62,118 bases of DNA from an uncultured Candidatus Saccharibacteria bacterium. Lineage in GTDB: Bacteria; Patescibacteriota; Minisyncoccia; Phycocordibacterales; Zambryskibacteraceae. Of this stretch, positions 45,161-62,118 are shown piece after piece (position 1 is the first letter of the stretch; each line of letters opens with the position of its first letter). The stretch is taken from contig CAZFAS010000003.1 of the NCBI GenBank assembly GCA_964516975.1, positions 4,508 to 66,625 on the forward strand, given 5' to 3'. The notes under the pieces are model-generated. The model saw nothing but the letters and a program-made list of their open reading frames with translations. It was not told the origin of the DNA and did not search any database. A program made the position numbers and the translations under genes.

Positions 45161-45510
45161 GTTGTATCAGGTGATCGCTATTTCAAAAATGAAATAGAGG
45201 AAAGTCCGAACACGTGTATATATAATATACAGGACAGTAGCAGGTAATACCTGCCCGGAGTAATCCGCGCGATGCGAACAGTGACGCTTCCAATCGAAAG
45301 AACGGAGGCTCCAAGATTCTCTTGGATGATTCACATAGTAATATGTGGAGTGCAACGGCTAAATTCGTACTTACGTGCAAGACCGTACTCATATAGAAAT
45401 ATATGTTTGTGTCGCTTGAGGTGTATTGTGAAATACATCCCAGATAAATGATCATCGCATACCCCTATTTTTAATAGGTGTATGTACAGAATTCGGCTTA
45501 TCGATACAGC
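45161..45510 (+). ncRNA. rnpB: RNase P RNA
   Basis: P1 pairing 45161-45168 with 45503-45510. P3 hairpin CTATTTC-AAAAA-TGAAATAG. P4 strand GAGGAAAGTCCGAACAC and the 3' conserved ACAGAATTCGGCTTA. Confidence 0.85.
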
Positions 45511-45520
45511 ATAAAATAAT

Positions 45521-45545
45521 AAAAACTCGCCTAAAGCGAGTTTTT
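45521..45545. terminator. bidirectional intrinsic terminator (rnpB and the LamG/giant-protein gene string)
   Basis: AAAAACTCGC-CTAAA-GCGAGTTTTT. Confidence 0.7.
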
Positions 45546-45572: not shown

Positions 45573-47759
45573 TTACTTCCCCATATGATATAACTGTTTT
45601 ACTTCCACACTACTAAGAGCTCTGTTATATAATCGCACCTCATCAAGCAAACCTGTGTATGGAGCACTTCCATCATTTTTGTTTCCAATTGTTAATGGAT
45701 CAACTGTATCAGACATAGATCCTGTCTGCGGTGTACTAGCAACTGAAACACCATCCATGTAAACAATAATATTTGATTGATCCCATGTACCAGCAAAATG
45801 GTGCCACTCATTATCCATATATGATCCCGGTGTTGTTGCACCGACACTTCCACCGGTATCAATGTTCAAAGTCAGAGCACCTGCTCCAGATACAAGAACA
45901 TCATATGAATTATTATTCGCTCCACTACGTTTCCAAAAAAGTCTTGAGCCACCTGCTGTTGTTGATGTCTTAAACCAAAATGAAATAGTTATTGGACCAG
46001 TAACACTTACTGATGGTGAATCTGGAACCGAAATTAAATTATTATTTCCGTTAAAGTAGAGAGCTTGTCCGACCTTTCCCGCAACAGGCGATGTTGTGGT
46101 GCCCATTCCTGTTGTTGTTCCATTATTATTACTTCCACTCCTGTCATACACAATATTTTTTGACCAATCGATATCTGATCCATTAAACGACCATAAACCT
46201 ACAAGACCCTTTGTCATTCGATTATTTTGACCTGAATTTATAACATATAATTTTGAATTCTGATACAAATATTTAATTTCATCAGAAGATAACGCTCGAT
46301 TATACACCCTTACATCATCAAGACTTGCACCAATCAAGTAATTTGCAGCAGTGTCTGTATTCTTCCCCACTGCAAAATGTGTAGCTTTTGTTGAACCTCT
46401 CGTTACTACGGCATGTGTACCATCTTGAACACCATTTATATATATGATTTCCCCGTCCGTCCCCGAATGAGTGCCTGCCACAAAATACCAAGTATTTGCA
46501 TCCCACGAACTCTTGCTTGATGAAGTTTCAATGAGCTGACTTGAATTCCCTACTGAAAAATGAAGTTTACCGTCATTTGCTGCTGGGGAAAAAGTACCAA
46601 GCTGGAGCACAACATCATTTGTCGATGGTGAATCCCCCAACCTCGTAATTATTCCCTCTGTACTTGCTGCAGTATACGGCTGATCAAATTTAATCCATGC
46701 GGTAAAAGTTACGTCGCCTGTGGCAATCGTCCCAGCAACCGAATCTGCTTGCATACCAGAACTATTTACAAACGAAAGAGCCTTACCAAACTTGCCACTT
46801 ACCCAATTCATTAAAGAATTTTTAACCATATGATTACCCTTTCCTGAAACATCGCCAACAGATGTTGAAGTGCCCTCATTCATTGGCCAATAAGCTACTA
46901 ATCCTTTATTTGTATTAGGCAAACTTGAGATATTTCCTGTCCTATATAAAGTCGCAATTTCAGAGGATGATAGTACTCGATTATATATTCGAAACTCATC
47001 CATAACCCCATCAAATGGATTCTGTGTGATAACATATTGTCCAACACCAATTGAAAGTCCATGATTCGTATCGTCATTTCTTGTGCCCACAGCATCTTGG
47101 CTTTTTTGATACGATGCTTCTACCCCATCAATGTATATATGAACATTTGAAGCACTTGTGGATCCATCCCAAGTCAAAACAACATGCTGCCATTTCCCCA
47201 TTTTAATTGAATTATCACTTGTGATTCTAAGTAATGAGGTACCACTGTATGGAACAAAAAAAGCAAGGGCGTTTGTACGATCAACACCATCGAGTCCAGC
47301 ATTACCGAATTCAAACTCTTGCCCTCCATTTGAAGAACCAGCTGTACTTACTTTATTAAAAATCCCTCCTCGGCTATTTCTTCCTTCACTTCTTGGGTAA
47401 ATCCAAACTGAATATGTAGAAGCACTCAAGTTACTCAGTGAACTTGATGACGCAACTCTAACCATATCATCACTTGAATCAAAATTTAGGCCATATCCAC
47501 GTTTCCCATTAGCCCAGCCAGATATTGATGATGCTGGGGAAGAAAAATTTGTTAGAACACCATTATTACCTTTTCCTGAATAATCGTGTGCGATTGTCGA
47601 GGTCCCCTCATTAAATGACCAATACGCAACAAGGCCAAGATTCGTAGGAGGTTTCAATAGTGTCGCTGCAGATACAAAATGAGGAAAAGTAAAAAACCCC
47701 ATTGTGATAAGTAGTGATATATTCCAAACTATATTTTTTTTAAAACCTACAATTTTCAT
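45573..47759 (-). CDS. secreted protein with three LamG (concanavalin A-like lectin, Laminin_G_3) domains
   Basis: Signal peptide. The pattern LVAYWSFNEGTST..D.SGKGNNG ... DE(F/V)R(I/V/L)YNRxLSSxEI recurs three times. Confidence 0.8.
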   Translation of the reverse strand: MKIVGFKKNIVWNISLLITMGFFTFPHFVSAATLLKPPTNLGLVAYWSFNEGTSTIAHDYSGKGNNGVLTNFSSPASSISGWANGKRGYGLNFDSSDDMVRVASSSSLSNLSASTYSVWIYPRSEGRNSRGGIFNKVSTAGSSNGGQEFEFGNAGLDGVDRTNALAFFVPYSGTSLLRITSDNSIKMGKWQHVVLTWDGSTSASNVHIYIDGVEASYQKSQDAVGTRNDDTNHGLSIGVGQYVITQNPFDGVMDEFRIYNRVLSSSEIATLYRTGNISSLPNTNKGLVAYWPMNEGTSTSVGDVSGKGNHMVKNSLMNWVSGKFGKALSFVNSSGMQADSVAGTIATGDVTFTAWIKFDQPYTAASTEGIITRLGDSPSTNDVVLQLGTFSPAANDGKLHFSVGNSSQLIETSSSKSSWDANTWYFVAGTHSGTDGEIIYINGVQDGTHAVVTRGSTKATHFAVGKNTDTAANYLIGASLDDVRVYNRALSSDEIKYLYQNSKLYVINSGQNNRMTKGLVGLWSFNGSDIDWSKNIVYDRSGSNNNGTTTGMGTTTSPVAGKVGQALYFNGNNNLISVPDSPSVSVTGPITISFWFKTSTTAGGSRLFWKRSGANNNSYDVLVSGAGALTLNIDTGGSVGATTPGSYMDNEWHHFAGTWDQSNIIVYMDGVSVASTPQTGSMSDTVDPLTIGNKNDGSAPYTGLLDEVRLYNRALSSVEVKQLYHMGK

Positions 47760-47800
47760 TTATAAACTTTATATTTGCTCATAATTAAGTATAACTTTTT

Positions 47801-48364
47801 TTACTCGGTTACACTTCCCCATTTCCATGATGACAAAATATCCGACATCTTAGTATCAAATGATCTATAGGTAGTAATTTGATAAAGATGGCCATTATTT
47901 ATAAACCAAACATTTCTCTGCGGGTTATTCTTCGATTCCATATCAAGAAAAGTTACACCTCTTGATCCAGCGATCTCAATATCATGAGAATCATCCATAA
48001 GTATATCTGGGTTATCTCTCTTAATAGCAGCTATTGATATTGAATCGCTATCGTTATATTCAGAAATTGCTAACTGGAAATTTTCTTCTTTTTTTTCTCC
48101 TACAAATACTGTTACCTCGTATTGAAGATTTGAAGCTGTATCTAACTGTTCAAAAGTATTACTAGTAAAATCCGAGGGAATTTCTATAGAAAATCTCCCA
48201 TTTAAATCAACATATACTTGCTTATCTTGTATAGTATTTTCCGATCTGATTCCTGAAGTATATAAACCTAAAAATATTTTTTTCTTATCTCGAACAATAA
48301 AGAGACCGGTCAGCACAATGAATATAAATATAATAAGAAAAACTAATTTCCTTCTCTTGTTCAT
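47801..48364 (-). CDS. hypothetical membrane-anchored protein
   Basis: 187 aa with an N-terminal TM helix (LVFLIIFIFIVLTGLFIV). No recognisable domain. Confidence 0.5.
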   Translation of the reverse strand: MNKRRKLVFLIIFIFIVLTGLFIVRDKKKIFLGLYTSGIRSENTIQDKQVYVDLNGRFSIEIPSDFTSNTFEQLDTASNLQYEVTVFVGEKKEENFQLAISEYNDSDSISIAAIKRDNPDILMDDSHDIEIAGSRGVTFLDMESKNNPQRNVWFINNGHLYQITTYRSFDTKMSDILSSWKWGSVTE

Positions 48365-48378
48365 AAACTTTTAAAAAG

Positions 48379-48897
48379 CTATGGTTTTTTTACCGGAGTA
48401 TTTGTTTGCGCAGATGGAATAGATTGCTGCTGTGTTTGGTTTGCTTGCGGGAGAACTTGTGACTGAGTAGTATCTCGTGGCTGTTGTAATGCATTTGGAT
48501 TTACTGGCGAAACTTCCTTTATCTTATTGAGAATCGGGCTATACAAAATTGCCTTTCTTGCCTCTGAATAAATTAGCACTTTGTCCCCCACTTCCACATG
48601 TGCGAAGAATGGCTGATTGCGGAGTTTTTCTGGATCTGTCACGGTAGCGACTGTTGGAGTTTCATTTTCTGGAAGAACAATGAGTTTCCCAACTGCAGCC
48701 ATAATATTCGCAACCTCCTTCTCAGCAGCTTTTGCCTGATCCTGCGGAGTTACAACTCGATGAGTATAGAGGTACGCCGCAACCCCACCGAGAGCAAGTA
48801 TGAGAACAATAAGAATTGAAACGATAATAATCATCTTCTTATTACTCTGCCTTTTAATTTTCACTGGTACTGATTGTTGTATATCTTGTGGTTCCAT
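48379..48897 (-). CDS. hypothetical membrane-anchored protein
   Basis: 172 aa with a TM helix (MIIIVSILIVLILALGGVAAYLY) and a Q/P-rich tail. Lies 18 nt downstream of the giant gene. Confidence 0.5.
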   Translation of the reverse strand: MEPQDIQQSVPVKIKRQSNKKMIIIVSILIVLILALGGVAAYLYTHRVVTPQDQAKAAEKEVANIMAAVGKLIVLPENETPTVATVTDPEKLRNQPFFAHVEVGDKVLIYSEARKAILYSPILNKIKEVSPVNPNALQQPRDTTQSQVLPQANQTQQQSIPSAQTNTPVKKP

Positions 48898-48915
48898 ATT
48901 TTTTTTATTAATGAA

Positions 48916-51900
48916 TTAAGGTGTCGCTGGTAAGGTTGTATCAATATTCACCGCTGTCTGACCAGAAGTGTCGACTGGTGTAGGCACTGGTGTTGTACTC
49001 GTATCAGTTGTTTGTGGGGCTGGACTAGTTGTTGTATCTGGAACTTGTGTTACGGTTGTCGGATCGTTAGTTACGGGAGTTGAACTTGCTGTTGAATCTG
49101 GTGGTGTTGTCGTATCTGGAGGAACAACTGGTTGAGTTGAAGTGCTTACTGGTGGCACTGGGTTCACTTGCTGAGGGTTAGTTGTTGTTGCAGTTGAGGT
49201 CGACTGAATTGTACTTAATGGCTGATAATTCGACGTAAGTGAAATTTTACCATCCTTTATTGCAAGTGCAATCCAACTAAATGTGATGTCCTCTTTTGCA
49301 GGATTATTAAGAAGGATTGTAAATCCATGTGTACTCTTTTGAGTTACCAAATACCTAACATCTGCATCAAATATCGCCTGCTCAAGCACCTTAGTATCGG
49401 TCGTTGTAGATGATTCAAGCGCAATAGTTGCAGATACAGTAGGCTGTGAAAGATATTCTCGATCGAAGATAACATCAACACTTCGAGAGCCTTTTTGAAC
49501 AACCGCAGTTCCACCCATATCTGATGTAAAGTATGGACGACCGAAGAATTCAACATCTGAAAGCATTGCAATAGTTGTACTTGCGGTTCCAATTGAATCT
49601 ACACGGAGTCCACCAACAAGTGTTGTTGTTCCATGAACTTCAAGGCCATTTGTTCGAACAGAATTTGAGAGAATATCTCCAGCAAACACAGCATTTCCAG
49701 TTGTATCAAATGTTACAACAACTCCATCATCAAGATTAATTGCAAATGGTGTAGTTGAACCCGTACTTGTTGCAACATTTGTAACTACTATTGGAGTTGT
49801 TGTTCCAACACTTATATCAGTTGATGAACTTGTAGTTCCAAGACCACTGAGTGCGTTAGCTACAAATCCTGCTTTTCTAATTACAAATCCACCAATGATT
49901 GAATCCACTTGGAGTTGACCTGCCTTGATTTCACCTGCGTTTACCTTAAGTCCTTCGATATCCTTTGCGTTCAATAGATTTGTGACTACATTTGGACTGA
50001 TAACTTGTGATACTGCTGAGATCTTATCTGCAAATATATCTGATTTATATGTTGGGCCAGCTTCTCTATCCTTTCGAAGATTTTCGAGGAATGCGAGCGT
50101 CTTTGCTTCCTTTGTTCCTGAGATAATGCCGATTGTTCCTGCATACTGTGAAGTTGTATCAGTCACAAGTCCTGAAGCATTAGGATCAAGATTTATACCT
50201 CTCATATCATTGTATGCAGACATTACATCATCAACTGGTGCTCCCATATAATCAGATAGATTTACAAACATCATAATCGTTCCACACTTTCTGTTTGGAA
50301 GATAGATATCACTTGCAGGACAATCTGTAAGCTTCTGCGGATCAAGTGATTCAAGTGCGTGACCGATGATATGTCCTGCAAGCGTTGCTTTCATTGCATG
50401 ACCTGGAACACTTGCTGCTGTGAGTTTATCACCAACTCGGATCATTCCGTTTTCTGTTGAAACCTTCACTGGCACACGTCCAATGAGTGCAATTGGATAT
50501 GAATTCTCAGTATATGCACCCGCCACGAATCCAGGATCAGTAGAGACAACACCGAGAGCATCTGGCTGATATTGATATCCTGTCTTCTTCACTCCATGAT
50601 TATTTTGTGGATCGATAGATACAACCTCTCCGAAATCAAGTTGCTCTTGTGATGTATATCTTTCTGCAAGGTCGGCACCTGATGTATTGATTGTTCCTCC
50701 CTGTTGAGCATAGATATCACCTGCTGAACTTACTCTAAACATTGAGAGTCCATCAGATTGTAAGTTGAGAAGATCCTTGTCCTTTGTCACCTTGTATTCA
50801 TAAAGAACAGGTGTCAAAACTGGTCGCTGTGGGTAGTTCATCGCTGATCCTCCGTTGTTATTCCATACATCAGTGTATATTCCTCCGTATGATGGGAATG
50901 AGCGTCGGAAATTGAAGATTACTTGCATCCATGCATCACCAGCAGATGGATTGATAAGCCCACCAGAATTTGAAATCTCACGAGCTGTTGTTGTACCTAA
51001 TGCAGCTTGTGTTGGTGCTGTCTTCACCTCAACTGATATTCCACCCTGTGCTACAGAAGCAACATTCGACTTCCATACGAGAGTTGAGTTCTGATCAAGT
51101 TTTGTTCCAGCAGGAGAAAGATCGAACTGTTCTGATCTATAAATACCGCTTGCAACCCATCCTGCATCATAAATCTGTGTAGCGTTTCCAGCATTAGTTG
51201 TGGTTGTCGTTGCTGCGCCCAAGATTACCATAAATTTACCATCTGAGCGCTGGAACGAAATTGCACCTGAGTTACTTGTAGCAGAGTTTGCAAGAACAGG
51301 GCCAGCAGTAAATGCACCTATTGTTTGGCCTTGGAATCCAGCACCGATTGCAGCACCTGCTCGTTCATTGTATATACCCGTTGTTGACTGACCAGCACCG
51401 TTTGCGGCACCTCCTCCATAAATAATGAGCCACGTTCCATCAGGTCGAGGTAGTGCATGCGCACCCATTCCCGCAGCAGAACCCGGTACTGCACCCGCAA
51501 TCATTGTCGCATTACTTACCGGGTTATAAATTTGAGTTGTCGCAGCGCCAATACATCCAACTGCTGAACCTCCCTTCACGATCACCCATAGTCCATCACG
51601 TCTCTGGAAAGCAAATGCGCCCGGACCTGTTCCTGGAGTAATCTGTGCAGGTGATCCAACTGACGTAAAGGTCATTGTGTATGGATCGAAGTTAAGTGTT
51701 GTTGTAATTGCAGTCGCACATGATGAAGCTGCGTATCCTGGGAGGAAGAGGTACGTACCGTCTGGTCGTGGAATCCAAAGTGATCCTCCACCTACTAATA
51801 TTGCAGCTGATGTAGTTGGACCAGGTGCCATAGTGTTATTTACTGGATCATAGATAGAAGAGTTTGCGGTAAATCCACCGTGCATGATAAGTATACGCCC

Positions 51901-54900
51901 ATTTGGAAGTGGGATTGCTGATGCTCCCATACCAGCTCCAGTTGAACCATTAATACTTGCGAGGTTAGGACCAGCGGTAAAGGTATCAAGGACAGGATCA
52001 TAAATGTTTGTTGTAGATGTTCCTGCAGGACCGTTTGATGCACCTGATATTGGTGAGTACCATCCTCCACCCATTACAATGAGGAATTTACCATCTGGGC
52101 GCTTCACCGCAAATCCTCCTGTACCAAGAGCTTGTGTAGGAACGTTTGGAGCAGAAGTATAGAGTGTTGTTGTTCCCGTCTTTTCATCATACGTCATTGA
52201 GTTGAGGGTCGTACTTCCAGAAATAATCTTAAATGTTCCATCAGGTCTCTTCATGACAATGGTGGTAGATGCTGTTCCTACTGGAAGTTGTGGACCAACA
52301 GCAAAAGCACCATTGTACTGTATTGGGTTCGTGCCATTCACCGTTGAACCAAGTGCACTATTTGTCGAAAGTGCGAGAGCATTCTGTCTGTTAGTATCAT
52401 TTGAAATATTTACATATACAGGACCTGAAGCAGAAGCTGTCGTAGATGATACAGAATTTCCAAAATCAAATTGGGTTTTATGAAGTACAGCACCGTTATC
52501 TACCGTCACGTCATACAGCACCGGATCAGCATTTACTCTTCGGTATCGAGTAAGTCCCGACTTTCGGATTCCCCACTCTTGATCGAGGAATCGTGGAAGC
52601 TCTCGTTGGAAGACAAACTTAAATTGAATCCTATTATCTGCAGTACTTGTTGCACCAATCAAACTTCCTGTCTGAGCAATCGGTACGTATGTTGATTGTG
52701 AACAATCTGCCGGACTTGTCGCAGTTCGTGCATATGCATAAATCTTACCTTCTGCATTTGATGTCCAATTTAGAGTTGAGTTAGGGGTAATATTTGTATT
52801 ACTAATACATTCACTTTCATAATATGCGTTCTGAGTATTTCCTTTATCAATACCGGTTACAAAATTCATATCATAGATATCAATAGCAGTTGAAGCGCCT
52901 CCACGAACTACAGCATATCGTCCATCTGGAAGCATGAATACCGTTAATCCATGACCGAGTGTTCCAAATCCAGATGGACCACTAGTAAAGCTTGGTGCAA
53001 TACTACCTGCGCCTGTATCGATAATACTTGTAGTTGAACTTGAAATTAATACATATTTACCATCCTGTCTCCATGTTGCCTGAGCACTATCAGCGAGAGC
53101 GGCAGATGGACCAACGCCGTAGTTTGCACTAAATGCTCCAAATCCATTTGAAGTTGTAGCAACTGGATTATATGAGAATGATTGATTTGCTGCACCAGGA
53201 AGTGTGAGGAAATAACCATCTTGTCTTCTGATTGAGAATGCGCCAGATGTAATTGCGGTAGGTGCAGCAGGACCAACTAATATGAAGTTTGAATAAGGGT
53301 TATAAATCCAAGTATTTGTCGAACCACCTCCTTGGTAAATAAGGAATGTTCCGTCATCACGCTGAAGAGCGTGTGCACCAGCACCCCATGCACCAGTAGG
53401 CCCAACCGCACCTCCTGTTGCTGGAGTACCAGACGCAAATCCAGAGGCAGTTGCAGCTGCTGGATCATAAATTCCCCAGTTTGGAGTTCCTCCAGAGAGA
53501 ATCACATACTTACCATCTGATCTTTGGAAAGCATATGTTCCTGTTGCCGCTGCACTGGTAAGTGATGGACCTGCGGCGACTGTAGTAATGTTAAACGGAT
53601 CAAATACTGACGTGTTTGTAACAGCTCCTCCATGAACAAGAAGATATCTACCGTCAGCACGCCTAATAGCTATAGAACCAGCGCCAACTGAACCAGTTGA
53701 TACTACAGACTGTGTTGACATCGTTCCACTGTTGAATCCATTCCAAAGTGATGCTGTTGCAGACCCACCTCCATGGATAATAAGGTACTTACCGTCAGAG
53801 CGAATAATAACCTGTCCTCCTGAGCTGACATTTGCTGCAGTAACTGTTGAAGTTGCACTCACCGTCCCGATTCCATCATTTACTACACCATCTTGGATAG
53901 TTACATAATTATTTGTTGAGGTTGTCGTAGCGAGTGTTGCTCCTGTTGCTAAGAAGTCAGTTGCTGGTGTTGAGCTACTTGTAGTTTTTACGATATCTGT
54001 TGTTTGAGTATTGATAGTAAGTCCTCCACTGTTTGCTACCACAAATTTATCTACCCCACCTTGCTGAAGTGTAAGTAACCCACCTGCACCACGCTGATCA
54101 ATCACAACAGCAGGAGTAGTTGTGCCTGATGTAGTTGAAGCTGAGAGAACGCCTGCCCAAGGAGTTGTTGTTCCTATACCTAATCGTGAATTCGTCTTGC
54201 TATAAGTAAAGTCTGATGTACCATCAAGAGCATTCGCGGTATTAAATTGAATCGATCCTGCTGAACCAGCAGCTGAAGCAGCACCAGCATTGATCGTACA
54301 ATCTGTAGCAGATGTTCCACCATTATCGGCACACGATACTCCTGTTCCAATAAAGTTAAGTTTTGTTCGGGCTGTAAGGTTTGATCCCTCATCTTGAATA
54401 GTTGCATATCCACCACCAGTTGGTGATGTTGTAGCAATTACAGCGCCTGTAGGACTTACAGCGAGGAATGTTCCTGCAGGAACTCCAAGGCTTGAGATAA
54501 TAAGAGCTGAGGTTGAAGCTGTACCATTTACCGTAAGAAGTGCTCCTGGAGTTTTAGTACCAATACCAACCTGACCAGTACTATCGATAGTCATACGAGT
54601 ATTTGTTGAGGTTGATGTCCCTCCAGTTACAAAGTACAAATTCTTTCCTGAAGATCCGTTCGCAAGATACATGTCATTACCAAGCGCTAAGATATTTGCG
54701 TCCCCTGCTCCACCAATATTGTATGTCTGTGGGTTATAGAAGTTTGAATTATTGATGCCCATCCACATGAAGTTTGTAGTGAGTGTGCCTGTATCCATCG
54801 TCGCTGAGAACCCTGACTGCGCACCAACTCCAGTTGATGTGTTTTGAACATTAATTTCAAAGAAATTATCGATGGAACCTTTTGCATATATAGCTTCAGT

Positions 54901-57900
54901 ATTTCCAGTCGTACCCGCATCAATAGATAATTTTGCATATGGAGAAGTTGAACCAATACCAATATCTCCATCTTGATCAATAGTTAATGCAGTTATAGTA
55001 GAAGTTGCAAAAGTACTTGGTGATGAAGTTGCAAAGTAGAGGTTTCCACCAGCATTTCTCATTGTCCAGATGTTTGATGTAAGTGATGCATCTGAAAGAG
55101 CGAATTGTGGTCGAGTAGATGATGCTACCTCAAGTGCCCATGCTGGAGTACTTGTTCCAATTCCAAGACCTACATTGTTTCCTCCATTAGGGTTAAGTGA
55201 AAGGAATGCAGATGATGAGGTTGCGAACTTATCTGTATTTGTTGTACCACCAGCAGCTGAGTCATCAGTACCACAGATTACACTACCATTTGCATCTGTT
55301 TGAAGGAGTTGATTTGCAGCAGAACAATTAAGTCCTATGATAGCGAGAGATGTTGTTGTTGCCTTTGATGTTGTTGCATTAAGCGCAGTGAAGTTCTGGA
55401 GCGTTGAAGATCCAGTTACAGAAAGATTTGATGTATTAATCTGACCATTTACATCAAGAGTGAATGCCGGAGCTGTTGTATTAATACCAACATTTCCAGA
55501 ATTAAGCACTGCCAATATTGAACTTGAAGCATTCGATACAAAATTTGCAAGTGTTGCATCAGTTGATGTACCCCATACTGTAAATGTTGCTGATGGAGTT
55601 GTTGTACCTACTCCAATACGAGGCGCTCGAATACCCCCAGCACCATCTGACTGTGAGTAAACAGTGAGAAGTGGATTTCCGTCAATCTGAGCAGTATAAC
55701 TTTCTACTGTTCCAAGAGCAGAGGCAGCTGTCACAGGCATATCTACCCATGTAAGAATACCTGCGTCAGTATCAAAGTTTGTAATACCAAGCTGAAGGTT
55801 ATCAATCGAAGTAAGTCCTGTAGACCAGTCATGAAGGATGGCACCACCATTTACATCAAGGCCACCAGCTAATGTTGTAGTTGAAGTTGAAGCATACGCA
55901 AAGAAGTTTTGTGCAGCCACTGTTCCCTGTACTGCAAATCTTGCAAACGGTGATGTGGTTGCAATCCCCACATTTCCATTTGTATCAATAGTGAGAGCAG
56001 AAACTGTTGATGTTGCGTACGTGCTTGGTGATGAAGTTGCAAAGTAGAGGTTTCCACCAGCATTTCTCATTGTCCAGATATCTGATGTAAGTGATGCATC
56101 TGAGAGAGCGAATTGTGGTCGTGTAGATGATGCTACCTCAAGTGCCCATGCAGGAGTAGATGTACCGATACCAAGACCTACATTGTTTCCTCCATTTGGA
56201 TTAAGTGAGAGGAATGCTGAGGTTGATGTTGCCCACATGTTACTACCCGCACCACCTGAATTTTGATCCGCAGAACATGTCACTGCTCCAGATGCTGATA
56301 TAGCTGACACCTTATCTGTTCCCGTACATGTTGTTCCACTTATGAGAGTATAATCCGTTCCATTTGATGCAACACTTACCAAACCGTTTACAGATTTGAG
56401 CATATTACTTCCTGTAGAAAGATAGAGATTAGATGTAGAAGCAAGAGTTGCAAAGAATTTTGTAGATGTAGCATTCGATGATGTTGAGTTGAGTGCTGTG
56501 AAGTTCTGGAGTGTTGTTGAGCCAGTAACAAGCATGTTTCCAGTAGATGAAATAGAGAACATGGTTGTAGTGCCAGAACCATTATTTGCAAAGAGTCCGA
56601 GGAGTGGGAATGTTGCAGAAGTTGATGTTGCATAGATAGAGAGTCTTGCATCTGGAGATGAAGTACCAATTCCAACATTACCAACTGAAGATATTCTCAT
56701 CTTTTCTGTTAGACCAAATGGACTTCGAGTCACAAAACCGATATCACCATAATCATTAGCATGATCTGTGAAGAAGCCGTATACCGCGGATGAGATCGAA
56801 CTGTTTGCATTATCTGCAAAACTAAACTTTGCATAGTTATTGTTTGTTTGATCAGTATTTACCATCTTGAAGAAGCTTGCATCTGATAGTGTCGTTGAGT
56901 TTGCAGACACTCCTTCAATTACAAAAGCGTCAATGTTGTTTGCATTCCCATGATATAACTTTGCCTTAACTGTATTTTCAATAGTCATTGTTCCGAGTCC
57001 GATCTGACCTGTATTTTTATCTACAAAGATTGAAGGTGCTGCATTTGTAGAAGTTGCATTCACTACAAATCGTGCATTCCCTACTGGCGTTGTACTTCCA
57101 ACAGCAAATACTCCAGCAAATGTAGAAGTTGCAGTAGTAGATGTTGCGTTAATAGCAGCTACTACAGGAGTAGATGAAGATACGAGGTTACCGTTGCTAT
57201 CAGTAGTGATAACCATGTTTGCACCAATACCCGATAGATTGAAGTTTGTAGCTCTAAGGTTTGTCGCAAAGAAGTTTGTTGTAGTAGCAGATGTACCTGT
57301 AGCGTTTGCAAAGGTGAAGTTCTGGAGAGTAGTAGAACCAGTAAGGAGAAGGTTAGAAAGGAGTCCTGTTGTTCCAACAAGATTCGTTGCAAAGAAGTTC
57401 GTTGTTGTAGCGTTTGTTGTTGTACTGTTGAGTGCTGTGAAGTTTTGGAGTGTTGTTGAACCTAATGAAAGCAAACCACCATTAAAAGTAGAAGCGGTTG
57501 ATGAGGTTGCTGTAAAATATTGAGCCGCAACTTGACCCTGCACATTGAGCTTCTCATTTGGAGAAACATTTCCAATACCAATATTCTGTGTATTAGCTTG
57601 CATAATCAAGCCTACTGCTCCATTCCAGAAGAACAAATCCCGAGTACCGTTACCATCTGGATCTATTCCTACCTGTCCAAATGGTACGCCATTTGAATTG
57701 AAAGAAACAACTGATTTAAAGGCGTTTGCACTAGTATTATCAAGAGCAATACCAACTAAAGAAGTTGGGCCGATTCCTGGTGACCCGGTAAATGTTGCAC
57801 CATAACCTCCAGATGGATACACTACAGTGAATTTAGTATTAGGTGTACTTGTACCAATCCCCACATTTCCATTTGTATCAATAGTGAGAGCAGAAACTGT

Positions 57901-60900
57901 TGATGTTGCGTACGTGCTTGGTGATGAAGTTGCAAAGTAGAGGTTTCCACCAGCATTTCTCATTGTCCAGATATCTGATGTAAGTGATGCATCTGAGAGA
58001 GCGAATTGTGGTCGTGTAGATGATGCTACCTCAAGTGCCCATGCAGGAGTAGATGTACCGATACCAAGACCTACATTGTTTCCTCCATTTGGATTAAGTG
58101 AGAGGAATGCTGAGGTTGATGTTGCCCACATGTTACTACCCGCACCACCTGAATTTTGATCCGCAGAACATGTCACTGCTCCAGATGCTGATATAGCTGA
58201 CACCTTATCTGTTCCCGTACATGTTGTTCCACTTATGAGAGTATAATCCGTTCCATTTGATGCAACACTTACCAAACCGTTTACAGATTTGAGCATATTA
58301 CTTCCTGTAGAAAGATAGAGATTAGATGTAGAAGCAAGAGTTGCAAAGAAGTTCGTTGTTGTCGCATTAGTTCCTGTTGCATTAAGGAATGTGAAGTTCT
58401 GGAGAGTTGTTGAACCATTTACAGAAAGATTTGATGCATTAATCTGACCATTTACATCAAGAGTGAATGCCGGAGCTGTTGTGTTGATACCTACCTTACC
58501 AGCATTATCAATAATGAAGTTGGTTGCGGTAGATGAACCAACTACAAATGCTGGGCCACTACTTGCCGTAAGCGATGTTGGATTAATTGCAAATCCACCC
58601 CATGGTGATGTAGTACCTACTGCTATTGTTCCTGAATCTAAGATACTAAAGAGTGTTGTTGATGCATTGTTTGCAACTTGGAAGGCTGTTGATGTTGATG
58701 TTGTTCCAAGACCCCATACCCCAAGACGAGCATATGGAGTAGATGTACCTGCACCGATGAATGCGTTTATGAGTTCAATCTTACCGAGTGTTCCTGAGTT
58801 AATGTTTCGAACTCGGATAGCGTCGCTCCATGCATTCGTTACACCAGAGAAGTATGCGAGTTCAACGCCGATATTTTGAGCGCCAGAGCCAACTCCAAGT
58901 CTTAAGCTCTGTGATGTTTTTGATGAAATAGAGAGGTTAGAACCAACACCACCATCCTGAGTTACTTGTAAAGCACCAGCAGCAGTGATTTCAGCAAGTG
59001 TGGTGCCGTTGAAGTTTGACCATACTTGCATAAGATCAGTAGCATTTGTTCTCTGTACTGAGAAGGCTGCAAGTGGTGCAGTTGTACCCACTCCCACTCT
59101 TCCATTTGTTTTATCAACAAAGAGTGAAGGCCTTGCATTTGATGTTGTAGAAACAACGAAATCTGCATTCCCCATAGGAGAAGTTGAACCGATAGAGAAT
59201 ACTCCAGCAAATGTAGAAGTTGCAGTGGTTGATGTTGCTTTAATAGCAGCAACAACAGGAGTAGATGAGGATACGAGGTTGCCATTGCTATCTGTAGTGA
59301 TAACCATGTTTGCACCAATACCTGAGAGATTAAAGTTTGTAGCACTAAGATTTGTAGCAAAGAAGTTTGTAGATGTAGCGTTTGTTGTAGTTGAATTAAG
59401 TGCAGTGAAGTTCTGAAGAGTGGTTGAACCTTGGAAGTATGCATTACCAAGTACTTCAAAGAGTGTTCCGTCTGTTGTTGTAGCATTACCACCAAGAACA
59501 AGAGCGATACTATTACCACCATTTGGTGAGAGTGTAAGACCATTTGATGACGTAGCGAACTTAGAGTTTGCTCCGCTACTTCCTGATCCTGTTCCACACG
59601 CTACTCCTGTATTAGAGAGTACTCCTGTAGATGAGAATGTTGCACATCCTGCTGTACCACCTGCTGAACTTACAATGAGATTTGTTGTTGATGCTGTTGT
59701 AGCAGAGAGAGTTGTTGTAGTTGCATTAGAAGTTGTTGAGTTAAGTGCTGTGAAGTTCCGAAGTGTTGTAGAGCCAGAAACAAACATGTCACCTGAGTTA
59801 CTGATTGAGAATCGTGTTGTTGTAGCAAAGGAAGCGACAGATGAAAGTTGGAAGAGAGGCGCAGTATCATTGTTTGCGCCAGCAACATCAAGACGAGCAA
59901 GTGGTGACGAAGTACCAAGACCAAGCTGGCCCATAGTGTATATATTTCCTGTAGTAGTATCCCATGCTCCATTTTGTGATGCAGTTGTGATTGATGATCC
60001 TCGTGCAACAGTTGATGAGAACATTCTCATTGTTCCACCCGCTACATTAATCACTCCAGAACTTACTTGGAAGAATTTATTTACACCTCCGTTTGTTGCA
60101 ATGTTTAGTACCCCGTCGTTTGCGGTTGCTGCAATGAGATTTACAAGATTATCGAGATCTTGGAGTTTGCCTGCGATTCTTACAATTCCCGTTGCATAGA
60201 GATTAGTTGTAGTTCCATTTGTTGTAGTTGAATTGAGTGCTGTAAAGTTCTGGAGAGTACTTGATCCTGTTACGAGAAGGTTACCAAATGTTCCAAGACC
60301 AGAAGCAGAAAGTGTTGTGCCTGTTGCGGTAGTGAATCCAAAGTTTGTCGCAAAGAAGTTCGTTGTAGTAGCTGATGTACCTGTAGCGTTTGCAAAAGTG
60401 AAGTTTTGGAGAGTGGTTGAGCCAGTAAGGAGAAGGTTAGAAAGGAGTCCTGTAGTACCAACAAGGTTTGTAGCAAAGAAGTTTGTTGTTGTAGCTGATG
60501 TACCGGTAGCGTTTGCAAAGGTGAAGTTCTGAAGAGTTGTAGAACCTTGGAAGTATGCATTACCAAGTACTTCAAAGAGTGTTCCATTTGTAGTTGTAGC
60601 ATTACCACCCAAAACAAGGGCGATACTATTACCACCATTTGGTGAGAGTGTAAGACCGTTTGATGAAGTTGCGAACTTTGAGTTACCTGATGTCATGTAA
60701 TCAGTACCTGCAACTGCTGCTACTACCCCACCTATACTGTTTACCTTAAGGAGTGTTGATGAAAGACCTGTGATTGCAAGTGATGTTGTTGTTGCTGATG
60801 TTCCGGTTGCTCTTGCAAATGTAATATCTTGGAATGATGAGGCAACAGTAGTTGATGTTGCAGTGAAGTATGAAGCGAATACATTGCCATCAAATACTCC

Positions 60901-62118
60901 TGAACCATTAACAGCAAGTGGTGTTCCTGGAGATGTGGTGCCAATTCCAAAGAATCCATTTGATCCAATGCGTACAAATTCTGTAAATGTTGAAAGTGAA
61001 TCATTTAACTGACCAAAAGTGAGTGACCCGGCAGAAGAAGAAGCGTAGAAATGTTTGAGGTTTGTACCTGCATTAATATCTGTAAGAACAAGTTGTGGCC
61101 GGCTACTTCCAGCAACGCTTAAGAGTGCTGTTGGTGTGTTTGTTCCAATACCAAATTTTCCACCGCTCGTAAGTGTTGCGGCTAGACCACCAGGATCACC
61201 AGTAGCATTTGCTGATATTGTGTTGAAATTAATTGATCTTCCACCAGCAGCAACAATATTTAGACCCCCATTAACTTGATTATCTAGTGAATATCCAAAT
61301 CGTGCTCTTCCACCAGCAATTGAAAGTTCTCGTGGTCCAATATTTCCTGATTCAAGAATAAGATTTCCTCCATTAATTTCTAATCTTCCTGTTGGAGCAT
61401 TTGTTCCGATGCCAACATCCCCCGTGCTCTTATTTACAAAGATAGATGGTTGTGCAGTCGTTGTGGTTGTTGCTACAACAAATAATGCATTACCTTGTGG
61501 TGTCGTACTTCCAACAGCAAATACCCCAGCAAATGTAGAAGTTGCAGTTGTAGATGTTGCTCTTATAGCAGCTACTACAGGAGTAGATGAGGATACGAGG
61601 TTACCGTTGCTATCAGTAGTGATAACCATGTTTGCACCAATACCTGAGAGATTGAAGTTTGTAGCTCTAAGGTTTGTAGCAAAGAAGTTCGTTGTAGTAG
61701 CTGATGTACCTGTAGCGTTTGCAAAGGTGAAGTTTTGGAGAGTGGTTGAGCCAGTAAGGAGAAGGTTAGAAAGGAGTCCTGTAGTACCAACAAGGTTTGT
61801 AGCAAAGAAGTTTGTTGTTGTAGCTGATGTACCGGTAGCGTTTGCAAAGGTGAAGTTCTGAAGAGTTGTAGAACCTTGGAAGTATGCATTACCAAGTACT
61901 TCAAAGAGTGTTCCATTTGTAGTTGTAGCATTACCACCCAAAACAAGGGCGATACTATTACCACCATTTGGTGAGAGTGTAAGACCGTTTGATGAAGTTG
62001 CGAACTTTGAGTTACCTGATGTCATGTAATCAGTACCTGCAACTGCTGCTACTACCCCACCTATACTGTTTACCTTAAGGAGTGTTGATGAAAGACCTGT
62101 GATTGCAAGTGATGTTGT
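48916..62118 (-). CDS. giant (>4,369 aa) repeat-rich surface protein; 5' end lies outside the window
   Basis: Continuous minus-strand frame. The sequence upstream of the first in-window Met (62026-62118) is still repeat sequence, matching 60697-60789. The protein has fibre-like repeat modules, two 7-bladed propeller-like regions, a Peptidase_G2/IMC-like module and a T/P-rich tail. Confidence 0.85.
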   Translation of the reverse strand, partial: TTSLAITGLSSTLLKVNSIGGVVAAVAGTDYMTSGNSKFATSSNGLTLSPNGGNSIALVLGGNATTTNGTLFEVLGNAYFQGSTTLQNFTFANATGTSATTTNFFATNLVGTTGLLSNLLLTGSTTLQNFTFANATGTSATTTNFFATNLRATNFNLSGIGANMVITTDSNGNLVSSSTPVVAAIRATSTTATSTFAGVFAVGSTTPQGNALFVVATTTTTAQPSIFVNKSTGDVGIGTNAPTGRLEINGGNLILESGNIGPRELSIAGGRARFGYSLDNQVNGGLNIVAAGGRSINFNTISANATGDPGGLAATLTSGGKFGIGTNTPTALLSVAGSSRPQLVLTDINAGTNLKHFYASSSAGSLTFGQLNDSLSTFTEFVRIGSNGFFGIGTTSPGTPLAVNGSGVFDGNVFASYFTATSTTVASSFQDITFARATGTSATTTSLAITGLSSTLLKVNSIGGVVAAVAGTDYMTSGNSKFATSSNGLTLSPNGGNSIALVLGGNATTTNGTLFEVLGNAYFQGSTTLQNFTFANATGTSATTTNFFATNLVGTTGLLSNLLLTGSTTLQNFTFANATGTSATTTNFFATNFGFTTATGTTLSASGLGTFGNLLVTGSSTLQNFTALNSTTTNGTTTNLYATGIVRIAGKLQDLDNLVNLIAATANDGVLNIATNGGVNKFFQVSSGVINVAGGTMRMFSSTVARGSSITTASQNGAWDTTTGNIYTMGQLGLGTSSPLARLDVAGANNDTAPLFQLSSVASFATTTRFSISNSGDMFVSGSTTLRNFTALNSTTSNATTTTLSATTASTTNLIVSSAGGTAGCATFSSTGVLSNTGVACGTGSGSSGANSKFATSSNGLTLSPNGGNSIALVLGGNATTTDGTLFEVLGNAYFQGSTTLQNFTALNSTTTNATSTNFFATNLSATNFNLSGIGANMVITTDSNGNLVSSSTPVVAAIKATSTTATSTFAGVFSIGSTSPMGNADFVVSTTSNARPSLFVDKTNGRVGVGTTAPLAAFSVQRTNATDLMQVWSNFNGTTLAEITAAGALQVTQDGGVGSNLSISSKTSQSLRLGVGSGAQNIGVELAYFSGVTNAWSDAIRVRNINSGTLGKIELINAFIGAGTSTPYARLGVWGLGTTSTSTAFQVANNASTTLFSILDSGTIAVGTTSPWGGFAINPTSLTASSGPAFVVGSSTATNFIIDNAGKVGINTTAPAFTLDVNGQINASNLSVNGSTTLQNFTFLNATGTNATTTNFFATLASTSNLYLSTGSNMLKSVNGLVSVASNGTDYTLISGTTCTGTDKVSAISASGAVTCSADQNSGGAGSNMWATSTSAFLSLNPNGGNNVGLGIGTSTPAWALEVASSTRPQFALSDASLTSDIWTMRNAGGNLYFATSSPSTYATSTVSALTIDTNGNVGIGTSTPNTKFTVVYPSGGYGATFTGSPGIGPTSLVGIALDNTSANAFKSVVSFNSNGVPFGQVGIDPDGNGTRDLFFWNGAVGLIMQANTQNIGIGNVSPNEKLNVQGQVAAQYFTATSSTASTFNGGLLSLGSTTLQNFTALNSTTTNATTTNFFATNLVGTTGLLSNLLLTGSTTLQNFTFANATGTSATTTNFFATNLRATNFNLSGIGANMVITTDSNGNLVSSSTPVVAAINATSTTATSTFAGVFAVGSTTPVGNARFVVNATSTNAAPSIFVDKNTGQIGLGTMTIENTVKAKLYHGNANNIDAFVIEGVSANSTTLSDASFFKMVNTDQTNNNYAKFSFADNANSSISSAVYGFFTDHANDYGDIGFVTRSPFGLTEKMRISSVGNVGIGTSSPDARLSIYATSTSATFPLLGLFANNGSGTTTMFSISSTGNMLVTGSTTLQNFTALNSTSSNATSTKFFATLASTSNLYLSTGSNMLKSVNGLVSVASNGTDYTLISGTTCTGTDKVSAISASGAVTCSADQNSGGAGSNMWATSTSAFLSLNPNGGNNVGLGIGTSTPAWALEVASSTRPQFALSDASLTSDIWTMRNAGGNLYFATSSPSTYATSTVSALTIDTNGNVGIATTSPFARFAVQGTVAAQNFFAYASTSTTTLAGGLDVNGGAILHDWSTGLTSIDNLQLGITNFDTDAGILTWVDMPVTAASALGTVESYTAQIDGNPLLTVYSQSDGAGGIRAPRIGVGTTTPSATFTVWGTSTDATLANFVSNASSSILAVLNSGNVGINTTAPAFTLDVNGQINTSNLSVTGSSTLQNFTALNATTSKATTTSLAIIGLNCSAANQLLQTDANGSVICGTDDSAAGGTTNTDKFATSSSAFLSLNPNGGNNVGLGIGTSTPAWALEVASSTRPQFALSDASLTSNIWTMRNAGGNLYFATSSPSTFATSTITALTIDQDGDIGIGSTSPYAKLSIDAGTTGNTEAIYAKGSIDNFFEINVQNTSTGVGAQSGFSATMDTGTLTTNFMWMGINNSNFYNPQTYNIGGAGDANILALGNDMYLANGSSGKNLYFVTGGTSTSTNTRMTIDSTGQVGIGTKTPGALLTVNGTASTSALIISSLGVPAGTFLAVSPTGAVIATTSPTGGGYATIQDEGSNLTARTKLNFIGTGVSCADNGGTSATDCTINAGAASAAGSAGSIQFNTANALDGTSDFTYSKTNSRLGIGTTTPWAGVLSASTTSGTTTPAVVIDQRGAGGLLTLQQGGVDKFVVANSGGLTINTQTTDIVKTTSSSTPATDFLATGATLATTTSTNNYVTIQDGVVNDGIGTVSATSTVTAANVSSGGQVIIRSDGKYLIIHGGGSATASLWNGFNSGTMSTQSVVSTGSVGAGSIAIRRADGRYLLVHGGAVTNTSVFDPFNITTVAAGPSLTSAAATGTYAFQRSDGKYVILSGGTPNWGIYDPAAATASGFASGTPATGGAVGPTGAWGAGAHALQRDDGTFLIYQGGGSTNTWIYNPYSNFILVGPAAPTAITSGAFSIRRQDGYFLTLPGAANQSFSYNPVATTSNGFGAFSANYGVGPSAALADSAQATWRQDGKYVLISSSTTSIIDTGAGSIAPSFTSGPSGFGTLGHGLTVFMLPDGRYAVVRGGASTAIDIYDMNFVTGIDKGNTQNAYYESECISNTNITPNSTLNWTSNAEGKIYAYARTATSPADCSQSTYVPIAQTGSLIGATSTADNRIQFKFVFQRELPRFLDQEWGIRKSGLTRYRRVNADPVLYDVTVDNGAVLHKTQFDFGNSVSSTTASASGPVYVNISNDTNRQNALALSTNSALGSTVNGTNPIQYNGAFAVGPQLPVGTASTTIVMKRPDGTFKIISGSTTLNSMTYDEKTGTTTLYTSAPNVPTQALGTGGFAVKRPDGKFLIVMGGGWYSPISGASNGPAGTSTTNIYDPVLDTFTAGPNLASINGSTGAGMGASAIPLPNGRILIMHGGFTANSSIYDPVNNTMAPGPTTSAAILVGGGSLWIPRPDGTYLFLPGYAASSCATAITTTLNFDPYTMTFTSVGSPAQITPGTGPGAFAFQRRDGLWVIVKGGSAVGCIGAATTQIYNPVSNATMIAGAVPGSAAGMGAHALPRPDGTWLIIYGGGAANGAGQSTTGIYNERAGAAIGAGFQGQTIGAFTAGPVLANSATSNSGAISFQRSDGKFMVILGAATTTTTNAGNATQIYDAGWVASGIYRSEQFDLSPAGTKLDQNSTLVWKSNVASVAQGGISVEVKTAPTQAALGTTTAREISNSGGLINPSAGDAWMQVIFNFRRSFPSYGGIYTDVWNNNGGSAMNYPQRPVLTPVLYEYKVTKDKDLLNLQSDGLSMFRVSSAGDIYAQQGGTINTSGADLAERYTSQEQLDFGEVVSIDPQNNHGVKKTGYQYQPDALGVVSTDPGFVAGAYTENSYPIALIGRVPVKVSTENGMIRVGDKLTAASVPGHAMKATLAGHIIGHALESLDPQKLTDCPASDIYLPNRKCGTIMMFVNLSDYMGAPVDDVMSAYNDMRGINLDPNASGLVTDTTSQYAGTIGIISGTKEAKTLAFLENLRKDREAGPTYKSDIFADKISAVSQVISPNVVTNLLNAKDIEGLKVNAGEIKAGQLQVDSIIGGFVIRKAGFVANALSGLGTTSSSTDISVGTTTPIVVTNVATSTGSTTPFAINLDDGVVVTFDTTGNAVFAGDILSNSVRTNGLEVHGTTTLVGGLRVDSIGTASTTIAMLSDVEFFGRPYFTSDMGGTAVVQKGSRSVDVIFDREYLSQPTVSATIALESSTTTDTKVLEQAIFDADVRYLVTQKSTHGFTILLNNPAKEDITFSWIALAIKDGKISLTSNYQPLSTIQSTSTATTTNPQQVNPVPPVSTSTQPVVPPDTTTPPDSTASSTPVTNDPTTVTQVPDTTTSPAPQTTDTSTTPVPTPVDTSGQTAVNIDTTLPATP

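Follow-up and report, generated by a model that had tools for sequence, protein, structure and literature searches.

Organization of the gene cluster

We examined a string of four genes at one end of a 62,118-nucleotide (nt) stretch of DNA, referred to here as the window, from an uncultured Candidatus Saccharibacteria bacterium (GenBank assembly GCA_964516975.1, contig CAZFAS010000003.1). The genes encode a giant predicted surface protein, two small membrane proteins (SmA and SmB), and a secreted protein of three LamG modules (LamG3); their coordinates and the domains of the giant protein are collected in Table 1. All four lie on the minus strand with intergenic gaps of 18, 14, and 41 nt, an operon-like packing that ends at a hairpin lying between LamG3 and rnpB. 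An A-run and a T-run border the stem-loop (CTCGC-TTTAG-GCGAG at 45526-45540), whose folding energy is -25.1 kcal/mol (z = -7.25); none of 200 shuffled sequences was as stable. Because rnpB converges on this hairpin from the opposite side, the element serves both transcription units. The tight packing and the bidirectional terminator stood as the initial annotation had described them. Promoters or terminators between the genes, which that annotation had named as signs of independent expression, were not seen in a consensus scan of the three short gaps for minus-strand sites, a scan that also missed the real hairpin. The starts of SmA, SmB, and LamG3 have A/T-rich leaders (47760-48915) in which no Shine-Dalgarno sequence was recognizable.

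The frame of the giant gene contains no stop from its terminal stop codon up to base 62118, a distance of 13.2 kb. The visible part thus encodes at least 4,400 amino acids (aa), and the 5' end lies outside the window. The open reading frame (ORF) lister starts the protein at an ATG at 62025, giving 4,369 aa, and the annotated surface protein of more than 4,369 aa and more than 13 kb is confirmed by the frame being open to the edge. The 5' end was not recovered, as contigs from the same strain all break inside the gene and two DNA pattern scans of metagenomes were empty.

Table 1. Features of the giant-fiber locus, in window coordinates.
Feature	Position	Strand	Description
Giant surface fiber gene	48916..62118	-	5'-truncated at window edge; stop codon 48916-48918
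Fiber-like region (shaft)	53899..62118	-	aa 1-2740; Thr/Gly/Ser/Ala/Asn-rich modules
β-propeller 1 (likely)	52849..53898	-	aa 2741-3090; seven blades, motif R-x-D-G-x-[YF]-h-h-h-x-G-G
mid1 (post-propeller domain 1)	52339..52848	-	aa 3091-3260; order conserved in homologs, no family match
β-propeller 2 (likely)	51169..52338	-	aa 3261-3650; seven blade motifs
mid2 (post-propeller domain 2)	50749..51168	-	aa 3651-3790; conserved in homologs
ctA	50245..50748	-	aa 3791-3958; phage-appendage-type C-terminal module, putative intramolecular chaperone with autocleavage
Predicted autocleavage site Ala3815 / Asp3816	50671..50676	-	within motif S-G-A-D-L-A-E-R-Y
ctB-ctC	49219..50244	-	aa 3959-4300; post-chaperone extension, fold without known relatives
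Thr/Pro-rich C-terminal tail	48919..49218	-	aa 4301-4400; ends '...NIDTTLPATP', no hydrophobic tail
SmA	48379..48897	-	172 aa, bitopic membrane protein
SmB	47801..48364	-	187 aa, predicted membrane-anchored PsbP-like protein
LamG3	45573..47759	-	728 aa, secreted, three concanavalin-A-like/LamG modules
Bidirectional intrinsic terminator	45521..45545	.	hairpin between LamG3 stop and rnpB 3' end
rnpB (bacterial RNase P RNA)	45159-45516	+	Rfam RF00010, 118 bits; convergent with LamG3

A phage-appendage-type module in the giant protein

The best-conserved part of the family is ctA, where identity rises to as much as 82% in relatives whose overall identity is about 55%. A tblastn search with ctA against 50,697 phage records matched 12 jumbo phages (E about 1e-9 to 1e-10). 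In a pairwise comparison with gp359 of phage PA5oct, the match reached E = 7e-16 with 38% identity over the C-terminal approximately 120 aa. It was noted that the matching part is the final ~130 residues of gp359, a 478-aa virion structural protein whose gene neighbors that of the distal subunit of the long tail fiber, and that the alignment begins exactly at ADLAERY (Ala3815). These matches indicate that ctA is homologous to a C-terminal appendage module of phages.

The predicted structure of ctA leads to the same group of proteins. When the AlphaFold model was searched against the PDB with Foldseek, phage decoration proteins were retrieved, and the top three matches included two entries of phi29 gp12, 3suc (E = 2.5e-3) and 3gqh_A (E = 5e-3, template modeling score, or TM, of 0.44-0.49). 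The gp12 matches in the PDB include the protein before maturation as well as its C-terminal auto-chaperone fragment in isolation; the query model had a predicted local distance difference test (pLDDT) of 69. Against BFVD, 35 viral models were found at E <= 1e-3 (best 5e-9, TM 0.54-0.61), among them tail-fiber proteins and a 'Preneck appendage protein (barrel)' at TM 0.56-0.61.

In phi29 gp12, the C-terminal domain acts as an intramolecular chaperone and is removed by cleavage once the trimer has assembled (PMC3357383), and the mature protein ends at residue 691 (PMC6542822). An hhalign alignment of ctA to gp12 residues 651-854 places A3815-D3816-L-A-E-R-Y on S691-D692-F-A-E-Y-F, at a probability of 11%, and the downstream blocks GxxV[ST][IL][DE] and [IL]GV[IV]S...GFV.G also match. 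The Asp and Glu of the motif are invariant in 20 of 20 relatives. By analogy with gp12, we infer autocleavage between Ala3815 and Asp3816. The phage-appendage-type maturation module proposed in the initial annotation is thereby supported from three sides, namely by homology to phage virion proteins, by fold matches, and by the alignment of its motif to the gp12 cleavage site.

What follows ctA differs among relatives. Proteins of the Peribacteria subfamily end directly after the module ('...FVNLSDY.GP'), as do PA5oct gp359 and phi29 gp12, and a domain boundary can be placed at about residue 3958 because this subfamily stops there. The ctB-ctC extension is kept in the Parcubacteria-type and Saccharibacteria-type relatives and absent from the Peribacteria type. 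It closes with a conserved motif, 'GFTI.LNK....D..FSWIALA.KD', and no relatives of it were found in the PDB or PHROG. The Thr/Pro-rich tail beyond it has similar counterparts in the relatives P0002 and L100. A sortase-anchored or autotransporter-type adhesin was considered and rejected, as the protein has neither a sorting signal nor a membrane or β-barrel anchor.

Shaft and probable propeller head of the giant protein

General family searches with the giant protein gave little. Pfam gave no family at E <= 0.01 for the whole protein and nothing significant for 10 overlapping segments, NCBIfam returned nothing useful for eight pieces, and sequence searches of the PDB were uninformative with each of five queries: the ctA and ctB-ctC profiles, the 2,740-aa shaft, the 1,050-aa head, and the C-terminal 621 aa. 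The 16 cysteines all lie in close pairs, and hydrophobicity nowhere reaches the level of a membrane span (maximum Kyte-Doolittle value 1.62).

The shaft contains 17 copies of a recurring 'GIGT..P' motif and matches the PHROG tail-fiber families phrog_9942 and phrog_18345 (E = 1e-9 to 1e-6), with no Pfam or PDB sequence matches. A self-comparison of its DNA revealed repeats of 453 nt at 99.1% identity, one copy of which touches the window edge, and of 569 nt at 96.7%, with several further repeats at about 85%. The shaft therefore carries large and recent internal duplications. Because of these near-identical repeats, and because one 1,893-nt unit is absent from a contig of the same strain (L101), the stated length of the giant is assembly-dependent. 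The repeats also account for the way in which genes of this kind break assemblies and go under-annotated.

Distal to the shaft, 14 blade motifs were found in two groups of seven with a spacing of about 47-52 aa, and each group is followed by a domain of about 150 aa. The direct match of the giant to Kelch_6 is weak (E = 0.084), and homologs carry Kelch_1, Kelch_2, and DUF1668 matches in Pfam. These blade-repeat domains are likely, though not proven, to be propellers, and mid1 is probably a β-sandwich. The unit of propeller and mid2 was also found behind prepilin-type N-termini in two relatives (P0071 and P0089), which suggests that the same module is used at the end of a different type of filament. 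Of the features that had been read into the giant from its sequence, the fiber-like repeats are upheld by the PHROG tail-fiber matches, and the propellers are made likely by the 14 blade motifs.

The giant and SmA as a conserved core

We assessed the distribution of the giant by using its C-terminal 1,161 residues as a query for protein homologs and by scanning genomes with the ctA alignment. About 90 homologous proteins were found, nearly all from Patescibacteria, and the order propeller-mid-propeller-mid-ctA is constant among them. The genome scan found 165 relatives and returned 80 loci, and synteny was counted over 82 loci with a ctA-type giant. Complete relatives range from 1,400 to 3,600 aa (the longest having 3,590), and truncated ones reach at least 3,975 aa. 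At the N-terminus, the complete proteins carry a Sec-type signal peptide together with a 'QINFQGKL..DGTNV' domain that is conserved among them, and by extension the giant in the window is probably exported by Sec as well.

SmA has at least 729 homologs, with the alignment core LIVLPEGETPTVATVTDPEKL..QPFF....GDKVLIY...KAILY.P..NKI.EV. An N-in transmembrane helix and another helix precede a conserved ectodomain of ~65 aa, and the protein ends in a disordered Gln/Thr/Pro tail. The membrane segment reaches a Kyte-Doolittle maximum of 3.09 and was modeled by AlphaFold as a helix over residues 20-47, with pLDDT >90 for residues 80-130. No structural neighbor of the model was found among PDB folds (best E = 0.2), and the 172-aa protein of the window has no Pfam match and lacks a LytR_C domain. 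It was noted that many long SmA paralogs (250-318 aa, for example L013:13936-14616 and L041:13773-14609) carry LytR_C on the C-terminal side of the SmA domain, which links the SmA ectodomain to a cell-envelope-associated domain family. An identity as FliL was rejected (23 bits against a cut-off of 179, covering only residues 15-63, the membrane helix), as were matches to Rz-spanin and superinfection-exclusion proteins, which were confined to the membrane helix or insignificant.

A SmA gene lies downstream of the ctA-type giant on the same strand in 66 of 82 loci. It is directly adjacent in 32 of them and often present in two or three tandem copies, and in another large group of loci a single β-lactamase-like gene separates SmA from the giant. 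SmA follows 53 of 55 giants with ctC and 9 of 21 without it (Fisher p = 6.5e-7, a value confounded by phylogeny); the loci lacking SmA are mainly those whose giant stops after ctA. When three SmA homologs were followed in reverse, one was found to neighbor a giant that has LVIVD repeats, a related C-terminus, and a length of at least 4,012 aa, another an fn3 protein of 1,082 aa, and the third lay among T4SS-pilin arrays. From this synteny, the giant and SmA form a conserved core across Patescibacteria, and SmA is best seen as a general partner of large surface-protein clusters that is strongly but not exclusively linked to the ctA-type giant.

In 30 other loci, the slot after SmA is taken by a dockerin-ended protein of ~440 aa and two or three cohesin-like proteins; no such dockerin- or cohesin-like proteins are present in the window. 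Examples of this module were recorded at L011:14458-18289, L012:7010-12071, L096:4357-9187, and L097:10480-14498. The ~440-aa protein contains a poly-Gly stretch, Big_6, and a C-terminal dockerin, and some of the cohesin-like partners have a C-terminal membrane anchor. A dockerin protein and other glycan-binding envelope proteins were found to be essential in Southlakia by transposon sequencing (PMC10633639), and the ~440-aa protein is possibly related to that dockerin protein.

SmB and LamG3 as an accessory pair

SmB had initially seemed an orphan in a word-index search, a result overturned by an exhaustive HMMER search that found 868 clusters at E <= 1e-3, the best down to 1.6e-28. PsbP_2 (PF18933) is matched by 26 of 48 aligned relatives (best E = 1.8e-10), with no match for the window protein itself. 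These relatives make SmB a likely member of a membrane-anchored PsbP-like family. An N-terminal hydrophobic segment is present in 48 of 48 relatives (Kyte-Doolittle maximum in SmB, 2.97), and the 187-aa start is favored for this reason over the 171-aa call of some assemblies. LamG3 matches Laminin_G_3 over three stretches (E = 9.4e-80, 266.5 bits against a Pfam cut-off of 27.6), and its N-terminus is signal-peptide-like (MKIV...HFVSA|AT). Assignment to the TafC family (NF052521) was rejected at 182.2 bits against a cut-off of 410. In a strain with 98.3% identity (L005:936-3122), LamG3 was called as two ORFs (304 and 418 aa), a split caused by substitutions and not by indels; SmA on the same contig has a dense patch (window 48562-48694) in which about 25 differences, mostly at third positions, fall within 130 nt.

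The pair recurs in varied arrangements. The full string is found as giant-SmA-SmB-LamG×3 in L029, as giant C-terminus-SmA-SmB-LamG in L100, and, with a β-lactamase-like gene inserted, as giant-βlac-SmA-SmB-LamG×2-TPR in L027, where TPR denotes a tetratricopeptide repeat gene. L019 has SmB and LamG reversed (giant-SmA-βlac-LamG-SmB-TPR-MurJ), L099 has the pair after another large protein (other large protein-SmB-LamG), and two contigs show SmA-SmB (L098) and βlac-SmB (P0241). Adjacency of SmB and LamG was thus recorded on at least five further independent contigs (L019, L027, L029, L099, and L100), at 22-37% identity in SmB, and the LamG copies in related loci number one to three and are paralogous. 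Judged from these comparisons, the SmB-LamG pair is an accessory of one sub-clade that survives inversion of its order and changes in copy number.

The initial annotation had described two small transmembrane-anchored proteins without recognizable domains and a secreted triple-LamG protein. The membrane anchors and the LamG modules are borne out by the hydrophobicity maxima of SmA and SmB and by the Laminin_G_3 matches and signal-like N-terminus of LamG3; for the 187-aa protein, the absence of a domain does not stand at the family level, as its relatives match PsbP_2. Conservation of the four genes together, whose absence that annotation had named as a refutation, is graded: the giant and SmA co-occur across the family, and SmB and LamG3 join them only in the sub-clade of L019, L027, L029, and L100. 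A core of two conserved genes (giant and SmA), joined by a lineage-specific accessory pair (SmB and LamG3), describes the locus better.

Strain variation in the shaft and head

The giant could be compared between close strains through contigs of other samples in which the SmB or LamG3 protein is identical. L101, a Joint Genome Institute (JGI) contig, is 100% identical to the window over 3.8 kb, from SmA to rnpB. When L101:1-8844 was compared with window 55962-58423, exactly one 1,893-nt shaft unit was found to be missing (window aa ~1232-1862), and what other differences there are gather around the hybrid repeat. The loss could be due to unequal crossing-over or to a collapse in the assembly. 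The apparently complete 2,740-aa gene annotated on L101 was discounted, since it is called from an internal Met on a contig that starts inside the giant, and the upstream antisense ORFs are spurious.

A second contig shows variation of another kind. In the comparison of L004:2-6124 with window 48916-55045, aa ~2540-3740, comprising the distal shaft, propellers, and mid domains (~1,200 codons, 3.6 kb), are divergent with sharp boundaries. Identity over the propellers and mid1 is 79-83% at the nucleotide level and 88-90% at the protein level, propeller 2 being lowest at 78.8% of nucleotides. The flanks are identical, on one side over aa 2359-2539 and on the other over about 5 kb running from ctA through SmA, SmB, and LamG3 to rnpB; this 5-kb flank is 100% identical except for six substitutions in ctB-ctC (99.4% identical). 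The number of synonymous substitutions per synonymous site (dS) in the head is 0.8-1.1, and the ratio of nonsynonymous to synonymous rates (dN/dS) is about 0.08. The pattern points to homologous recombination in which the head was exchanged for the allele of a diverged lineage. Hypermutation or diversity generation was rejected, because it does not fit a dN/dS of ~0.08 and a dS of ~1 across a sharply bounded 3.6 kb. L001 has a mosaic of its own, which is milder. Mosaicism of this type in a head domain is typical of receptor-binding proteins and surface antigens.

Genomic neighborhood

The remainder of the window is ordinary chromosome and includes gyrA, lepA, murJ, a TPR gene, a class I tRNA synthetase gene, and six tRNAs. 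No phage structural genes were found among the neighbors (rnpB, TPR, MurJ, LepA, and tRNAs). A 90-aa ORF at 45183-45455 (-) sits inside rnpB and is spurious. Two Beta-lactamase2-type genes lie at 37961-38977 (+) and 23178-24227 (+), with hidden Markov model E-values of 2e-98 and 7e-87, and belong to the same family as the gene found between the giant and SmA in 49 related loci. The window also encodes a second large predicted surface protein of 1,673 aa at 27527-32548 (-), with matches to an RGI_lyase β-sheet, GH85_C, and PG_binding_1, and another of 1,299 aa at 18075-21974 (-) with DUF11 and DUF4114 matches.

Proposed function and alternative explanations

We favor, with moderate confidence, the reading of this locus as a chromosomal operon for a cell-surface fiber system, most likely serving host recognition and adhesion, in which the head acts as a specificity determinant exchanged between strains. 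The giant would be exported by Sec and would resemble a phage receptor-binding fiber in its architecture, with an expandable shaft, a distal head of two seven-bladed propellers that are each paired with a β-sandwich, and the ctA chaperone. By analogy with gp12, ctA would nucleate the assembly of an oligomer, probably a trimer, and would then cut the chain at Ala3815|Asp3816. SmA most likely docks or assembles the fiber at the membrane, a role favored by its co-occurrence with ctC. The propeller head would bind the target, with head alleles swapped between strains by homologous recombination, while LamG3 may add glycan-binding capacity and SmB probably tethers it at the cell surface beside the fiber. 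Trimerization and the contacts of SmA with the fiber and of SmB with LamG3 are deduced steps of this scheme. The attachment function itself is suggested by the predicted surface location, the lectin and propeller folds, the presence of the propeller module on prepilin-type proteins, and the recombinational swap of the head.

Several observations weigh against this reading. The giant has no LPXTG motif, transmembrane segment, or cell-wall-binding domain to show how it is anchored, and neither the host nor an episymbiotic lifestyle is established for the organism. For ctA, the Pfam model Peptidase_G2 does not match (the segment aa 3780-4100 gave one unrelated weak match at E <= 1), a PDB profile search did not retrieve gp12, the hhalign probability to gp12 is only 11%, and the AlphaFold model is of moderate quality (pLDDT 69). 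Moreover, the module is not terminal in the window protein, where about 440 residues follow it, an arrangement without precedent in gp12. The mosaic of L004 could be an assembly chimera, as these are contigs from short-read metagenomes. Most relatives lack SmB and LamG, among them several of the closest ones (L014-L018). SmA was found in L096 beside a 1,082-aa fn3 protein with no ctA-type giant and in L095 among T4SS-pilin arrays with no giant, so that it is not a dedicated partner. Finally, every component is known here from its sequence and predicted models alone. The L095 array is itself of note, as about eleven tandem T4SS_pilin (PF18895) genes flank the SmA homolog (L095:3692-8586 and 10621-10977) at the position, before rpsO-NYN-PNPase, that is occupied in L097 by a giant and a dockerin cluster.

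A bolder version of the fiber hypothesis, which we regard as tentative and as rather doubtful in its full extent, would make the locus a Patescibacteria-wide domesticated phage fiber with a self-cleaving chaperone, serving as the main host-recognition organelle with SmA as its dedicated dock, a swappable head, and interchangeable co-adhesins. In such a system, SmA would bind the post-chaperone extension and the cleaved C-terminal fragment would form a cell-side anchor. Exchange of heads between lineages would retarget hosts, as with phage tail fibers, and the slot after SmA would take PsbP-like and LamG proteins here and dockerin/cohesin-like proteins elsewhere.

It is also possible, though we judge it somewhat unlikely, that only the giant and SmA form a functional unit and that SmB and LamG3 are independent surface proteins, downstream by chance in a genome that is compact and co-directional, and co-transcribed with the fiber without acting with it. 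In about 75 of 80 related loci, no SmB and LamG follow the giant, and dockerin/cohesin-like or other genes take their place; in L099 the pair comes after a large protein of another kind. Synteny in L019, L027, and the window extends to the flanking TPR and MurJ genes, so that part of the conservation is plain local synteny. Such independence is harder to reconcile with the recurrence of the giant-SmA-SmB-LamG string in L027, L029, and L100 at only 22-37% SmB identity, or with the survival of the SmB-LamG pairing through the inversion in L019, with gaps of 3-41 nt. Relatives of SmB also lie beside the β-lactamase-like gene typical of these clusters.

Less probable still is that the fiber is a structural component of the envelope, such as a coat, a spacer, a protective layer, or a decoy or shield against phages, with head variation arising from phage or predator pressure. 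The thick fibrous coat of Vampirococcus has been attributed to giant proteins (PMC8080830), the giant family is nearly universal in Patescibacteria whatever the host, and swapping of an exposed domain would equally fit evasion of phages that use the fiber as a receptor. Against this, the propeller and sandwich module is also present on pilin-type proteins, the lectin and dockerin/cohesin-like partners point to ligand binding, and the architecture of phage receptor-binding proteins is one for binding.

An enzymatic or predatory role, in which the propellers or ctB-ctC would degrade host glycan or wall material with LamG3 as a carbohydrate-binding helper, appears very unlikely. No catalytic family was detected in the giant by Pfam, NCBIfam, or PDB sequence searches, and the LamG3 matches are to lectin-type modules only. 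The idea draws on the depolymerase activity of gp12-type spikes, on the Beta-lactamase2 genes that lie between the giant and SmA in 49 loci and twice elsewhere in the window, and on the occurrence of the LamG fold in glucanases and sialidases, with weak TS_C and Sialidase matches.

That the giant is a prophage or phage-derived tail-fiber remnant, or that its size is an assembly artifact, is scarcely credible: the PHROG and ctA matches to phages, the near-identical repeats at the window edge, the breaks of all other assemblies inside the gene, and the missing 1,893-nt unit of L101 are outweighed by housekeeping flanks (rnpB, murJ, lepA, tRNAs, and gyrA) that lack phage structural genes, by Sec signal peptides in relatives, unlike in tail fibers, by a syntenic position conserved in many genomes, and by a family of large proteins (complete at 3,590 aa, truncated at at least 3,975 aa) with no internal stop over 13.2 kb here.

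Comparison with known systems

How ultra-small episymbionts choose and hold their hosts is little understood beyond type IV pili. The locus described here defines a widespread and so far undescribed gene cluster of Patescibacteria, with a predicted cleavage site, a conserved membrane partner, and a variable head cassette. If the head sets host range, its alleles could serve to predict host specificity and to follow it through metagenomes, and a phage-derived self-assembly module would be another case of cells reusing viral attachment machinery. We found no paper describing the giant family, its gp12-type module, or SmA, and no description of a PsbP-like protein of the SmB type paired with LamG genes in the literature searched. 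SmB resembles PsbP_2 proteins in its size and its N-terminal membrane anchor.

PilY1-like proteins are propeller adhesins associated with type IV pili. The relatives P0071 and P0089 can be likened to them, by description only, in having a propeller and mid2 behind a prepilin-type N-terminus, whereas the giant of the window has no pilin signal.

The attachment gear usually inferred for episymbionts of the Candidate Phyla Radiation (CPR) and DPANN consists of giant surface proteins and LamG operons (PMC8080830, PMC10266531), and host recognition has been inferred both for the giants of Vampirococcus lugosii and for a nanohaloarchaeal LamG operon with adhesin-like and pyocin-knob proteins (PMC8080830, PMC10266531). 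The Vampirococcus, nanohaloarchaeal, and SPEARE-type systems share with the present locus a reduced genome, very large predicted surface proteins, clustered multi-LamG proteins, and a presumed role in host recognition. However, they belong to other families with no homology detected; their giants carry Ig, PKD, WD40, or VirB4-ATPase parts, and none has been described with a gp12-type chaperone, SmA, or a PsbP-like partner. The haloarchaeal TafC (NF052521) is likewise a LamG-fold protein, belonging to the Tat-fimbriae surface filament (PMC11821415). In contrast to TafC, LamG3 has a Sec-type and not a Tat-type signal, three modules, and a bacterial context, and the similarity between them is generic to the LamG fold.

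The closest parallels to the giant itself are found in phages. PA5oct gp359 and its relatives in Phosso and Atu_ph07 share direct C-terminal sequence homology with it from ADLAERY onward, although gp359 is a 478-aa virion protein that ends with the module and whose upstream sequence is unrelated to the giant. The giant differs from phi29 gp12 (Peptidase_G2 type) in being cellular, predicted to be exported by Sec, and at least 4,400 aa long, in having propellers where gp12 has a β-helix, and in the roughly 440 residues that follow a module which the Pfam model fails to detect. The two are alike in placing a β-rich C-terminal module after the receptor-binding part and in the motif [S/A]-D-[F/L]-A-E-[Y/R]-[F/Y] at the S691|D692 cut. 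Overall, the giant is most likely a cellular fibrous adhesin built on the principles of phage receptor-binding proteins.

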